Of a DNA stretch of 32,000 nucleotides, positions 26,768-32,000 are shown in pieces. Source of the stretch: Deinococcus radiodurans R1 = ATCC 13939 = DSM 20539. GTDB taxonomy: Bacteria > Deinococcota > Deinococci > Deinococcales > Deinococcaceae. Both the position numbers and the translations under genes were made by a program. Every line of letters begins with the position of its first letter. The first letter of the stretch is position 1. The notes under the pieces were generated by a model. It was given only the letters and a program-made list of their open reading frames with translations, made no database searches and was not told where the DNA came from. The stretch is taken from NCBI RefSeq assembly GCF_000008565.1, contig NC_001263.1, positions 645,776-677,775 on the forward strand, read 5' to 3'.

Positions 26768-27022
26768 ATGACTTACCAGAACGCCGAACGCATGACCATC
26801 AGCCTGCCGCCCGATATCGCCCGTTACATCAAGGACTACCAGCAAACGCACGGACTGGAAAGCCGCAGCGAAGCCTTCGTGAAAGCCGTTCAAGCCCTCA
26901 GAGAACAGGAACTGGCCGAGCAATACACCGCACTCGCCCGTGAGAACGACCCCGAACGCGCCCTCTTTCTGGAAGGCAACACCGACGGACTGGAACCCAG
27001 CGACGGTAGCGAATGGCTGTAG
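26768..27022 (+). CDS. Ribbon-helix-helix (CopG/MazE-like) antitoxin
   Basis: 84 aa. N-terminal beta-strand-type MTISLPPDIARYIKDY, then an acidic tail. Overlaps the toxin start by 10 nt. Confidence 0.7.
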   Translation: MTYQNAERMTISLPPDIARYIKDYQQTHGLESRSEAFVKAVQALREQELAEQYTALARENDPERALFLEGNTDGLEPSDGSEWL

Positions 27023-27360
27023 GACTCATCCGGCGCGGCGACATTTTTCTGACCCATTTCGGCCCCGCCCGCGCAGGCGAACCGGACTTCAAACGCCCCG
27101 CTGTGGTCATCACCAACAATGTCGCCAACGCCAAAGCGGATGCCGTGACCGTCATTCCGCTCACCAGCAACCTGGAAACCCTCTACGATTTTCAACTGCT
27201 GCTCCCCACCGAGCGAACCGGGCTGAACTTGGACAGCAAAGCGCAGACGGAATTGATCTCGTGTATTGCCATCAGCCGCATCGGGAAGCACCTGGGGCAA
27301 GTGCCAGCCGACCTCATGGCTGAACTGGACGCCAGAATCCGCCTTCACCTTGCCCTGTAA
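27013..27360 (+). CDS. mazF: MazF/PemK family endoribonuclease toxin
   Basis: RRGDIFLTHFGPARAGEPDFKRPAVVITNN...VTVIPLTS...LDSKAQTELISCIAISRI. Canonical PemK/MazF pattern, 115 aa. Confidence 0.88.
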   Translation: MAVGLIRRGDIFLTHFGPARAGEPDFKRPAVVITNNVANAKADAVTVIPLTSNLETLYDFQLLLPTERTGLNLDSKAQTELISCIAISRIGKHLGQVPADLMAELDARIRLHLAL

Positions 27361-27369
27361 ACAGTCGAA

Positions 27370-27435
27370 GGGGACGAGCCACCCCGTCCCCCATTCCCGC
27401 CCCGGAACCGCCCAAGCCAAAGCAGAGGCTTGAGC
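27370..27435 (+). repeat. Cassette-boundary repeat, copy 3
   Basis: Hairpin GGGGACG-AGCCACC-CCGTCCCC, then CCGCCCCGGAACCGCCCAAGCCAAAGCAGAGGCTTGAGC. Confidence 0.65.
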
Positions 27436-27463
27436 TAAACTGTCAACAAGGTAGGAGGACTCA

Positions 27464-27940
27464 TTGCGACTCGGACGACATGGAATACGGGAAGTCATAA
27501 ACTTCTTACAAACATGCAACACTAACGGTAATTTGCCTGATAAGATATTCATTGTTAGCCCATACTATACCCATGCCGCCGGAAATAAGCTTTTGGTCTC
27601 TCTGATTAATAAGGGTGTTAAGGTTTCAGTATTAATACAAAGTGAAGCTTGGGACAATGGAAGCCCGTCGATAAACCAAAAACTAATTATTGATCTAAAC
27701 AATGCTGTCGGCAAAAGCATCGTGAAAAAGTGCGATGATCTTCACGCTAAGATTTTTATCTTCTCGTATCCAGACGGTAGCAGGGAAACTTGGATAGGAT
27801 CATCAAATTTTACATTTAAGGCTGATGGGAAGATTTACTATAATAGTCGCAAAAATATAGAGACAATTGAAAAAATAGTTATTGATTCTCAAATTGAAGC
27901 AGAACTACGTCAAATGTGGAAAAGTGGAGTATTCGTATGA
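27464..27940 (+). CDS. Single-HKD phospholipase D superfamily protein (Nuc-like nuclease candidate)
   Basis: TTG start 5 nt after the GGAGG core of AGGAGGA. HKD motif LHAKIFIFSYPDGSRETWIGSSNFT (His codon 27743-27745, Asn codon 27806-27808). 158 aa. AT-rich codon usage unlike the host. Confidence 0.75.
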   Translation: MRLGRHGIREVINFLQTCNTNGNLPDKIFIVSPYYTHAAGNKLLVSLINKGVKVSVLIQSEAWDNGSPSINQKLIIDLNNAVGKSIVKKCDDLHAKIFIFSYPDGSRETWIGSSNFTFKADGKIYYNSRKNIETIEKIVIDSQIEAELRQMWKSGVFV

Positions 27941-28422
27941 AACGATATTGGGTTGTGCTGGCTAAATATAATATCCACGATTTTCACAATCAAGAATCGA
28001 ATTACATAATTGAATCATTATGGAATACGATAAATTTAGATGAAAAAGTGGAAGGTCATGCCAATTTGGAAATCCATCTTGATAGCAACACCGGAATAGT
28101 AAATGCGGGTTTTATTTTGTATTGCGAAAAAAGTTTAGCGAGAAGGATAACCACTCGCCTAAGTCGATATGTATATTTCCAAGATTATAGGGAGAAGCAG
28201 ATAATAGATACTGAGTACGGCTTATCTAAAGTAAATGCCAACGAGATAATGCTGATTGATCTTCTTAGTTACCTAAAATTTGAATCTTTACAATACTATC
28301 ACTCAGGAAAAGTTGAAATTGAGTTTATTTGGCGAAATTTCGACTTCATTATTGAGAAGGTAATACCAGAATTTGAATTAAACAGGGCAGATCGAGATTC
28401 ACAGGAAGATGAACCTTTCTAA
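27937..28422 (+). CDS. Hypothetical protein coupled to the PLD gene
   Basis: ATG at 27937 overlaps the PLD stop (ATGA). 161 aa (MKRYWVVLAKYNIHDFHNQ...). No motif I recognise. Acidic C-terminus RADRDSQEDEPF. Confidence 0.5.
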   Translation: MKRYWVVLAKYNIHDFHNQESNYIIESLWNTINLDEKVEGHANLEIHLDSNTGIVNAGFILYCEKSLARRITTRLSRYVYFQDYREKQIIDTEYGLSKVNANEIMLIDLLSYLKFESLQYYHSGKVEIEFIWRNFDFIIEKVIPEFELNRADRDSQEDEPF

Positions 28423-29150
28423 ATACCTATATAGAATGAGGAGTATATCTGATTGTCGCAAGCGACTTGCATCATTGAATTAAATTCGTCTGAATATTTT
28501 GCATTCATCTGTCGAATCTGGCAATCCCTTATTTTATCACCCAGAATCGATTTGCCCATAACCAGAAGATACTTTTTGGTTAAAGGAAAATAGAGTTCGG
28601 CGCCATCTTTTCCGATGCCTTGACTCATTGTAAGCGACATTTTACCTGTTCCACAATCTGTTATGCCAGTAATAACAGGAACATCGCTCGTTATATATGG
28701 GGAATCGGAGGGTACTTCGAGAAATTGAAATGTGAAGTTTGACAAGTGGCCTTTTATCTTGGGAAGGCTACTACTAATATTATTATCGAGCATGATTAAA
28801 TGTGTAATTTTGGCAAAATCATCCTGACTCAAGGTTGTACCGGGCTGACCGACTTCCCTTGCTGCCAAATCGAAGGTTTGCTCCCTGATCCTAGGTGTAC
28901 GAAGAAGCTGCAAGCCGACAATTTCAGCAAGCATAGATTTATGATTATGGTTCATAAATCTATGCTTGGCGTCCAAATTTAAGGTCAAATCTCTGATAAA
29001 TCGCGAGTGAATCGCTTCAAAATTATCCGAGATTTGCTTCTCAAGATAATAGGGGTCATCATGCTTTACACCCTTTATATCAACGGTATGGAAATTTCTT
29101 TCCACCGCTATGCCCTCTGGACTGGTCTTAAATGTCTTTTTCCTAGTTTT
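28419..29150 (-). pseudogene. DUF4238 family protein, 3' portion (codons 32-274 of the reconstructed ORF), separated from its 5' end by the IS
   Basis: The frame of track ORF 28419..29105 stays open upstream to the exact IS boundary at 29150 (KTRKKTFKTSPEGIA-VERNFHTVD...). It contains a YITSDVPV motif like the SDNPV motif of DUF4238. Confidence 0.8.
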
Positions 29151-29300
29151 TTGAACCTCACACGACTAAAGTCGCGTGATTCTCACTTCGCAGACCATTG
29201 CCCGCCGAAGCAGGTCTGACATAGCCTCCATGAGCGTTTAAGGTGTCTGAGATTCCCGCAGCCACCAACGCTTCACGCCGAATGTTCAGCGCAGCGTTCT
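29135..29300 (-). ncRNA. TnpB guide RNA (omegaRNA/reRNA): scaffold from the tnpB 3' end and RE, plus ~16-nt read-through guide. The 5' boundary is not determinable from sequence.
   Basis: The minus strand reads ...GTCAGACCTGCTTCGGCGGGCAATGGTCTGCGAAGTGAGAATCACGCGACTTTAGTCGTGTGAGGTTCAA, ending at the IS end (29151). Nested stems are CAGACC/GGTCTG (29191-29218) and TCACACGAC/GTCGCGTGA (29158-29179). The flanking 29150-29135 (AAAACTAGGAAAAAGA) would be the guide. This matches my memory of the published ISDra2 scaffold. Confidence 0.7.
29158..29179 (-). repeat. RE subterminal imperfect palindrome
   Basis: The minus strand reads TCACGCGAC-TTTA-GTCGTGTGA with one mismatch. It is similar to the LE hairpin. 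Confidence 0.7.
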
Positions 29301-30384
29301 CGTCTCGGTCATGGGTTTCCCCACAGTTCGGGCAAGTCCATGTACGGACGGCAAGATTCTTCACTTCGGGATTCTTGAATCCGCAGTCATGACACAACTG
29401 GCTAGATGGAAAGTAGGGGCTGACTTTAGATACCAGTCGCCCGTACCACGCTGCCTTGTATTCCAACTGCCGGATGAACTCACCCCAGCCCGCATCACTG
29501 ATGCTCAGTGCAAGGCGGCGATTTTTCCGCATGTTGTCGGGTTTAAGGTGTTCGGTTCCGATGATTTCGTACTCACGCACCAGGGAGGTGGTGAGCTTGT
29601 GAAGGAAATCCTGACGCTTATTGACAATGCGCTTGTGAATCCGAGCCAGCTTGGTTTTCGCTTTCCCGTAACGTGCGCTGCCCTTCTTCCGTCTGGACAG
29701 GGTTTGCTGAGCTTTACGAAGTCTTTTCAGGGTGGAGCGGTAATATTTCGGATTCTGTTCATGCTTAAACCTCACGCCATCGGTCACGATGGCAAAATCC
29801 TTGATGCCGACATCCACACCCGCTGCAAACTTGGGAGCCGCAGGCAGGTAGGGAATCTCGACTTCACAGAGAACGGACGCTTCGTAATGGCCTTCGTGAA
29901 TACGGCGCACAGTGACATTCAGAATCTTCCCTTGAATATCCTGCTGGCCCTTGGTTTTCACCCATCCCAGCTTAGGAAGTTTGAGCCTACCTTCCCCAAT
30001 TTGGATGTTGTTGTTGGTGAATTGAGTCCGGTAGGACTCTCCCGTGCGCTTCTTTCTGAAACGTGGGAATCCTACCTTTTTACCGGACTGCTTCACAGTC
30101 CGAAAGAAGTTCTTGTACGCGGTCTCAAGGTTTTTCAGCGAGTTCTGCAAAGCAAACTTATCTACTTCCGAGAGCCAGGAGGTTTCTTCAGCCTGCTTCA
30201 GAAGGGTCAGTTCGCTACTCGTTTGCCCGTAGGTCAGTCCCTTCCCGCTTTCCTTGTAGGCCGCAATGCGACGGGCAAGGAAGTGGTTGTAGACGAACCT
30301 TGCGCTACCCAGCGTGCGGTTAATCAGTTCAGTCTGAGCCGCATTTGGGTACAGCCTGACCACGAAAGCCTTATTCCTTATCAT
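29158..30384 (-). CDS. tnpB: TnpB, RNA-guided RuvC-type DNA endonuclease (IS605 OrfB family)
   Basis: 408 aa. [18 protein letters not shown]-terminus. RuvC motifs [17 protein letters not shown] and [11 protein letters not shown]. Zinc finger CHDCG...CPNCG. I recognise the sequence as ISDra2 TnpB. Confidence 0.95.
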
Positions 30385-30793
30385 GCTGGCTCTCTATGTA
30401 TTTCTGAATCTGAGCGCGGGTGTTTTCAGAAACAGTCAGGATGCAATACGACGGGTTCCAGAGATTGCCGCCCCACAGCTTTTCTTTCAACTGCGGGTAG
30501 GCCACGAACATCCGACGTGCGGAAGCGCCTTTCAGCGCCTTCACGAAGTCGGGGATGGCTTGCTGTGGGGTTGCGCTTAGCAGGAGGTGAACGTGGTCAG
30601 GCATGACTTCCATCGTGATGACTTCCAGCCCGTTCTGAGCGGCAATGTCACGCAGGATGTCTTTCAGTCCATCAGCAACCTCACCCACCAACACCTGATG
30701 ACGGTATTTCACGCACCAGATGAGGTGGTATTCAAGCTGATAGACGTAACCCCGGCCTTTCTTCATCTCAAGGGGAAGAATAACATATGTCAT
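30371..30793 (-). CDS. tnpA: IS200/IS605 Y1 (HUH) transposase TnpA
   Basis: 140 aa. HUH motif PDHVHLLL. Catalytic Tyr in the C-terminal helix QKYIESQ (Y132). Confidence 0.93.
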
Positions 30794-30850
30794 CTGGAAA
30801 AGCTAGAGGCTTCCGCTTTTCATCGCCCTTTTCAGGGCGAGAGGGGCTAA

Positions 30851-30870
30851 CTCATGACTGAAGTCACGAG
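30851..30870 (-). repeat. LE subterminal imperfect palindrome
   Basis: The minus strand reads CTCGTGAC-TTCA-GTCATGAG with one mismatch. A second hairpin, TCGCCC-TTTTCA-GGGCGA, lies at 30823-30840. Confidence 0.7.
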
Positions 30871-30886
30871 TGTGCGCCCCTCAAGC

Positions 30887-30978
30887 ATCAAGCACGAACA
30901 GCTTACCATCCGAATCACAGAACTCTCTCAAATAATATTGAGGAACCCAGTGGTGTCTGATTGGTTCATTATTTGCCA

Positions 30979-30979
<1 letters not shown>
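30887..30979 (-). pseudogene. DUF4238 family protein, 5' portion (codons 1-31), ending in the TTGAT insertion site
   Basis: The minus strand translates as MANNEPIRHHWVPQYYLREFCDSDGKLFVLD. HHWVPQYYLREF matches the HYVPQFYLRxF N-terminal signature of DUF4238. The ATG overlaps the carB stop (TAATG). Confidence 0.8.

Positions 30980-32000
<1,021 letters not shown>

Follow-up and report, generated by a model that had tools for sequence, protein, structure and literature searches.

An intact ISDra2 copy with its TnpB-omegaRNA module in the Deinococcus radiodurans R1 chromosome

An ISDra2 copy within a DUF4238 gene

To characterize a putative RNA-guided nuclease locus of Deinococcus radiodurans R1, we analysed a 32,000-nucleotide (nt) stretch of its chromosome (the window, with coordinates counted from its first letter). 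The minus strand carries a copy of ISDra2, an IS200/IS605 insertion sequence (IS). Between its left end (LE) and right end (RE) lie tnpA and tnpB, and the element interrupts a gene encoding a DUF4238 protein (Table 1). The scaffold of its guide RNA, termed omegaRNA or right-end element RNA (reRNA), overlaps the 3' end of tnpB and terminates at the right boundary of the IS, with the flanking DNA supplying the guide. We estimate a probability of about 96% that window positions 29151-30886 represent an intact ISDra2 copy, inserted 3' of TTGAT in the DUF4238 gene and equipped with a TnpB-guide RNA module.

Both genes encoded proteins matching those of solved structures. The two reading frames overlap (30793..30371 and 30384..29158, both minus strand). 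TnpA aligned over its full 140 amino acids (aa) with the TnpA of PDB 2XM3 (314 bits). TnpB contained the Pfam domains HTH_OrfB_IS605, OrfB_IS605, and Cas12f1-like_TNB, and all of its 408 aa were identical (100%) to those of the TnpB chains in PDB 8BF8, 8EX9, 8EXA, and 8H1J. The best match to TnpB in a protein scan of genome contigs was 85% identical. An earlier note on this DNA, made from its letters, had proposed a RuvC triad and a CxxC...CxxC zinc finger. These were located at D191, E278, and D361, and at C331/C334/C351/C354 (CHDC from residue 331 and CPNC from residue 351), which are the catalytic and zinc-binding residues of the cryogenic electron microscopy (cryo-EM) study (PMC10097598). 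The same note had regarded the module as already described. Indeed, it is the published type example of TnpB-omegaRNA, the ISDra2 system itself rather than a new member or variant.

The ends of the element were fixed to the base by three independent checks. First, five further sites encoding an identical TnpB matched all 1736 bp with 0 mismatches, with TTGAT 5' of each, and the 16 nt of 3' flank were different at each of these identical copies. This length is also the published one for ISDra2 (Pasternak 2010, PMC2806898). Second, similarity ended immediately past TTCAA in alignments with homologues from Deinococcus and with about 100 relatives from metagenomes. The right terminus on the minus strand reads GGTTCAA (29157..29151), followed by the 16 nt AAAACTAGGAAAAAGA (29150..29135). 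Third, the flanks could be joined into a contiguous gene, and the vacant site was present elsewhere.

The joined flanks encode a 274-aa protein which aligned with positions 1-278 of the 281 in Pfam DUF4238 at 135 bits, compared with 82 bits for the fragment. An intact 274-aa D. radiodurans protein, annotated as 'DUF4238 domain-containing protein', was 100% identical to it. At the vacant site in two other assemblies (L144 and L145) the sequence reads ...CTTGAT/AAAACTAGGAAAAAGA... (slash, insertion point), and 1100 nt of the joined flanks matched exactly. These flanks are exactly contiguous, so insertion caused no target duplication. The insertion is polymorphic between strains. In a comparison of laboratory strains, an ISDra2 is listed for position 674926 of chromosome I in the 1999 genome, and the 2021 genome lacks it (PMC11276467). 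With the vacant site of CP150840.1 lying at about 672-675 kb, the listed copy is probably the one in our window.

These observations also bear on whether this copy could be a relic that is silent or decaying, with an intact sequence but no expression and an idle module at the locus. No sigma-70-like promoter match was found in LE (30886-30794, minus strand), and the nearest minus-strand match lies upstream at 30959..30932. However, a consensus promoter scan is uninformative for Deinococcus. The 0 mismatches to other ISDra2 copies argue against decay. Vacancy of the site in other assemblies of the species indicates recent transposition, and ISDra2 copy number differs between laboratory strains (PMC11276467). 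We consider a relic very unlikely.

In place of terminal inverted repeats, ISDra2 bears a subterminal hairpin at each end, and both lie on the minus strand. The LE hairpin is ACTCGTGAC-TTCA-GTCATGAGT, and the RE hairpin is TCACGCGAC/GTCGTGTGA. Both contain the same G.T mismatch, which is probably a TnpA recognition feature. The DNA fold of LE gave a z-score of -5.5, and the RNA fold of its first 116 nt gave -6.2.

Table 1. Features of the ISDra2 copy, its omegaRNA, and the interrupted gene (window coordinates)
Feature	Coordinates	Strand	Basis or remark
Complete ISDra2, order LE-tnpA-tnpB-RE	29151..30886	-	1736 bp
TTGAT, TnpA target site and TnpB transposon-associated motif (TAM)	30887..30891	-	directly abuts left end
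Left end (LE)	30794..30886	-	subterminal hairpin at about 30871..30850
tnpA, Y1/HUH transposase, 140 aa	30371..30793	-	Pfam Y1_Tnp, E = 2e-43
tnpB, RNA-guided nuclease, 408 aa	29158..30384	-	open reading frame, Pfam, PDB identity
5' extension of primary omegaRNA, -231 to -117	29267..29381	-	within tnpB coding sequence
Core omegaRNA/reRNA scaffold, -116 to -1	29151..29266	-	published numbering, covariance model, covariation
Stem 1, -116..-92	29242..29266	-	loop GGAAU (29252-29256) is the pseudoknot 5' strand
Stem 2, -85..-80 (29230-29235) with -36..-31 (29181-29186)	29181..29235	-	encloses stems 3a and 3b
Stem 3a, AGGCUAU (29221-29227) with AUGGUCU (29192-29198)	29192..29227	-	encloses stem 3b
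Stem 3b, CCUGC-UUCG-GCGGG, UUCG loop	29199-29220	-	inside stem 3a
Stem 4, UCACGCGAC-UUUA-GUCGUGUGA, conserved G.U	29158..29179	-	UUUA tetraloop at -20..-17
GGUUCAA, last 7 nt of IS	29151..29157	-	GUUCA (-6 to -2) is the pseudoknot 3' strand
Guide of this copy, AAAACTAGGAAAAAGA	29135..29150	-	flanking DNA, codons 32-37 of the DUF4238 gene
DUF4238 gene, 3' part	28419..29150	-	interrupted by IS
DUF4238 gene, 5' part, 31 codons	30887..30979	-	flanks join in frame

Fold and covariation of the omegaRNA scaffold

The omegaRNA is numbered backwards from the end of the IS, such that -1 corresponds to 29151 and any position -n to window position 29150+n. Under this numbering, every nucleotide named by Nakagawa 2023 (PMC10097598) matched the window. 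From -116 to -10, the scaffold overlaps the codons of the dispensable C-terminal tail of TnpB and the first base of its stop codon, which is -10U. The primary RNA begins with the G at 29381 (-231), and its 5' extension is removed by processing and is unnecessary for cleavage (Nakagawa 2023, PMC10097598).

The minimum free energy (MFE) fold of -116 to -1 gave stems 1, 2, 3a, 3b, and 4. In the published structure, -35U..-32G pair with -81A..-84C in stem 2, and -77A..-71U pair with -42U..-48A in stem 3a (PMC10097598). As published, the pseudoknot joins GGAAU (-106..-102) to GUUCA (-6..-2) beside the guide. It comprises pairs of -5U..-3C with -103A..-105G, flanked by the non-canonical -6G/-102U and -2A/-106G (PMC10097598). 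A candidate extension of stem 4, pairing -32..-30 with -5..-3, appeared in the MFE fold of the longer RNA and was rejected, as the pseudoknot takes its place in the solved structure.

The earlier note had proposed stems ending exactly at the IS end, and had missed the pseudoknot and stems 1-3. The inverted repeat it placed at 29158-29179 (TCACACGAC/GTCGCGTGA) is present and corresponds to stem 4, and the IS terminus is GGTTCAA at 29157-29151, as it stated. However, the hairpin ends at 29158, 7 nt short of that terminus. Nor do these 7 nt lie beyond the structure, as 5 of the 7 (GUUCA) form the 3' strand of the pseudoknot.

Covariation was assessed in two alignments. The first (A1) comprised 11 Deinococcus-type sequences; for the loci found by protein similarity, TnpB was 55-85% identical to the query. 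The published structure, including the pseudoknot, was 95% paired in A1, and 13 pairs had changed on both sides. Controls in which the 3' partner was slid by 1-3 columns were 30-43% paired. From A1 we built a covariance model that omitted the pseudoknot. It matched the window once, at 29151-29266 on the minus strand (128 bits), and gave 101 matches in other loci. These included sites directly 3' of tnpB in distant loci found by protein alone, from Sphaerochaeta, Selenomonadaceae, and Levilactobacillus (L009, L010, and L016).

The second alignment (A2) comprised 91 distinct sequences from the model matches. Here the structure was 92.4% paired (35-44% in slid controls), compensatory changes occurred in 32 of 39 pairs, and 0 of 500 shuffles reached the observed values. 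Stem 1 (helices 1-2) was 91-93% paired, with 9 of 9 pairs covarying on A2. Stem 2 was paired in 100% of A1 and 95.7% of A2, with compensatory changes in 4 of 5 pairs. Stems 3a and 3b covaried in both alignments, and stem 4 was 99-100% paired with compensatory changes. Although outside the covariance model, the pseudoknot was 92% paired on A2 (92-100% over both alignments). Stem 3b was naturally deleted in two loci (L006 and L126), which agrees with the published gain in editing upon its deletion (PMC10097598). Taken together, the published fold, including the pseudoknot, is well supported by covariation over about 90 relatives.

The earlier note had proposed a covariance analysis of this region, and had listed a CAGACC/GGTCTG stem. 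While the published stems and pseudoknot covaried or paired, this stem did not covary. The sequence is a perfect 6-bp inverted repeat (29191-29196 with 29213-29218, or -68..-63 with -46..-41), and was weighed as an alternative in which the functional 3' fold consists of a CAGACC/GGUCUG stem (29191-29218) and the terminal hairpin instead of stems 3a and 3b. The repeat is truly present, and part of this region has never been seen directly, stem 3b being unresolved in the cryo-EM map (PMC10097598). However, GGUCU pairs with AGGCUAU as stem 3a in the cryo-EM structure, and the MFE fold agrees. By local energy, stems 3a and 3b reached -13.1 kcal/mol compared with -7.0 for CAGACC/GGUCUG, which is 6.1 worse. 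The repeat was paired in 60% of A1 and 57% of A2 with no covariation excess over shuffles, whereas stems 3a and 3b covaried in the same alignments. The CAGACC/GGUCUG pairing is perfect in ISDra2 and missing from the related elements, and it cannot form together with stems 3a and 3b. We consider it very unlikely to be the functional pairing. There is a similarly slim chance that it could form an ISDra2-specific conformer that lets the transcript switch between mRNA and omegaRNA states at its 3' end. Such a switch would fit the mRNA cis-inhibition reported for AmaTnpB.

Thermodynamic stability did not distinguish the scaffold. The 3' end had been described as unusually rich in nested stems, yet the 247-nt 3' stretch gave z = -2.67 (3 of 200 shuffles folded equally well), and both LE (z = -6.2) and an internal tnpB stretch (-4 to -5) scored lower. 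As a scan along the IS fails to single out the omegaRNA core, stability is unusable as evidence for this RNA. Support for it comes instead from the solved structure and from covariation. Within tnpB, 29901-30140 (minus strand) gave z = -4.1, with 116-nt windows down to -5.3. As a candidate functional structure it was rejected, since its main hairpins were not kept in Deinococcus homologues, and it is probably incidental.

The bases of stem 4 double as the subterminal RE DNA hairpin of the type bound by TnpA. The 31-nt motif of stem 4 plus TTCA occurred once in the window, with 0 occurrences expected by chance. Its G.U was retained in 85 of 91 A2 sequences, and the LE hairpin has a G.T at the corresponding position of that strand. 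This G.U and G.T point to a dual constraint, in which the same 22 nt probably serve both as TnpA DNA hairpin and as the WED-bound RNA stem of TnpB. It is extremely unlikely that RE structure reflects only the TnpA hairpin and coding constraint on the TnpB tail, with no guide RNA function in this copy. The shape of stem 4, the LE hairpin with the same mismatch, and the dispensability of TnpB for transposition (PMC2806898) would fit, but covariation spans stems 1, 2, 3a, and 3b, about 90 nt upstream of the RE hairpin, conservation of the RNA region exceeds that of the encoded tail, which is disordered and dispensable (PMC10097598), and the identical sequence has been solved as a ribonucleoprotein (RNP).

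Guide, vacant allele, and proposed mechanism

For ISDra2, the earlier note had listed an reRNA/omegaRNA, a guide of about 16 nt from the flank, and a TTGAT TAM, all in agreement with Karvelis 2021 (PMC8612924). In that study, TnpB co-purified with an RNA of about 150 nt derived from the tnpB 3' end and RE, of which the final ~16 nt are flank. The RNP cut double-stranded DNA beside 5'-TTGAT at 15-21 bp from the TAM, and D191A abolished cutting (PMC8612924). TTGAT is the target site of TnpA as well as the TAM of TnpB (Karvelis 2021, PMC8612924; Pasternak 2010, PMC2806898), and TnpB is not required for transposition (PMC2806898). The RuvC site of a relative trims the 5' end of its own mRNA and not the 3' end, and for Dra2TnpB several 5' sites were reported (PMC10278001). 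In Geobacillus relatives, donor joints formed by TnpA excision are cut, and transposons are better retained with TnpB (Meers preprint).

Together, these results suggest the following model for the window copy. The tnpB mRNA would read through RE into the DUF4238 fragment, as shown heterologously. TnpB would then bind the final ~116-130 nt of the transcript that encodes it, folded as stems 1-4 and the pseudoknot; this step draws on the cryo-EM structure of this exact sequence and the covariation described above. The 5' end would be trimmed by the RuvC site of TnpB, as shown for the relative. On the minus strand, no terminator-like site was found past the guide, in a scan that is uninformative for Deinococcus; for this reason, host RNases presumably shorten the 3' end until about 16 nt of flank remain. 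The resulting RNP, carrying AAAACTAGGAAAAAGA, would seek TTGAT followed by AAAACTAGGAAAAAGA and cut both strands 15-21 bp from the TAM, as shown with other guides.

This target would arise only after TnpA excises the element and the donor site is resealed. TnpB would cut the vacant site, and recombination with the sister copy would restore the IS. The occupied site should be safe. The DNA that matches the guide in the window follows TTCAA, the RE cleavage motif or transposon-encoded motif (TEM). TTCAA and the TAM have different letters at positions 3 and 5. With TTCAA rather than TTGAT beside the guide match, the occupied site is presumably uncut. TTGAT followed by AAAACTAGGAAAAAGA was found at the vacant allele of other D. 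radiodurans assemblies, and the only natural target of this guide is likely to be that allele, TTGAT/AAAACTAGG....

Several points weigh against this interpretation. The window copy is known from sequence, and the evidence for transcription, RNP formation, and cleavage comes from other settings. Homing has been demonstrated in Geobacillus elements and is proposed for ISDra2. The 116-nt core is thermodynamically unremarkable (z = -1.9). The pseudoknot is mostly invariant, such that its covariation is thin, with double changes in 1 of 4 pairs. A2 was aligned to the nested structure of the model, which biases its pair counts towards that structure. A search of Rfam 15 at E <= 1 over 28500-31200 returned zero matching families for the omegaRNA.

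The interrupted gene and its surroundings yielded further observations. The IS lies in an AT-rich island (27000-29150 and 30887-30979) with a GC content of 37-48%, compared with 65-71% in the remainder of the window. The DUF4238 gene gave a partial match to the PADLOC model 'DUF4238-Pers' (E = 2e-10). An adjoining 158-aa open reading frame (ORF) of the PLD family (27464-27940, plus strand) gave weak matches to ZacB and DrmC. The island and these defence-model matches raise the possibility that ISDra2 knocked out a candidate anti-phage gene. At the vacant-site locus, a PemK-toxin gene follows. On the other side, the 3' end of carB, encoding the large subunit of carbamoyl-phosphate synthase (30979-31998, minus strand), reaches the DUF4238 start codon; in L144 the carB stop and DUF4238 start have one base in common.

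One copy elsewhere showed rearranged flanks. The ISDra2 of L142 (GCA_965136095.1) shares its left flank with L139 (GGCGTCTGAATGGCCTTGAT) and has a different right flank and guide, beside an SNF2-related gene. This suggests either that two IS copies recombined or that a deletion started at RE, similar to a described loss of about 6 kb (PMC11276467).

Comparison with known and related systems

TnpB-omegaRNA represents the ancestor of Cas12 as well as a compact genome editor, and the window holds the very element on which TnpB biology was established. All tested features were the same as in the published ISDra2 TnpB-reRNA (Karvelis 2021; Nakagawa 2023; PDB 8BF8, 8EXA, and 8H1J), and the system itself gains nothing new. 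The sole difference is the insertion site, and hence the native 16-nt guide AAAACTAGGAAAAAGA; the guides of other chromosomal ISDra2 copies are GAGTCCCTTGGCGCCC, GTGGTCGATCATCGAG, or GTTTTGTGCCTCGTCG. Our analysis adds the vacant-allele target of this guide in other strains, covariation for the published fold, the lack of an Rfam family, and the rejection of a plausible stem.

More than 100 distinct elements on metagenome contigs (L019-L138), from digesters, guts, and fermentations, contained the last ~32 nt of ISDra2, comprising stem 4 and GGTTCAA. A literature check found no experimental characterization of these elements. Like ISDra2, they have a GGAAY pseudoknot loop, stems 1 and 2, and an abrupt loss of similarity past TTCAA. 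In contrast, their stem 3 is variable in length or absent, their scaffolds span about 87-128 nt, and some lack an adjacent tnpB. The short scaffolds appear to be natural 'trimmed' omegaRNAs. One contig (L097:10619-10860, plus strand) held two tandem omegaRNA-like scaffolds 47 nt apart, with no adjoining tnpB, downstream of a 582-aa ORF. Several other metagenomic contigs (also L039, L085, L068, and L121) held 2-3 scaffold copies. Such multi-scaffold loci may be gene-less derivatives, similar to palindrome-associated transposable elements (PATEs), or nested insertions.

Other IS200/IS605 systems, including AmaTnpB, the Geobacillus ISGst TnpB, and IS608, share with ISDra2 the pairing of TnpA with TnpB, an omegaRNA overlapping the tnpB 3' end, and related TAM and TEM motifs. 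The TAM and TEM of ISDra2 differ at positions 3 and 5, as was reported for the Geobacillus elements (Meers preprint). Unlike ISDra2, these systems have their own TAMs (TTAC for IS608; PMC8612924) and scaffold sequences, and homing was shown directly for ISGst, not ISDra2 (Meers preprint).

Cas12f with its single guide RNA (type V-F) resembles TnpB in its core of RuvC and zinc finger (TNB), reflected in the Pfam domain Cas12f1-like_TNB. Its RNA shares the layout of guide, pseudoknot, and stem, and both systems need a 5' target-adjacent motif. In contrast to Cas12f, TnpB takes its guide from the transposon flank rather than a CRISPR array, and works as a monomer with a single continuous RNA, serving transposon retention rather than immunity (PMC8612924).

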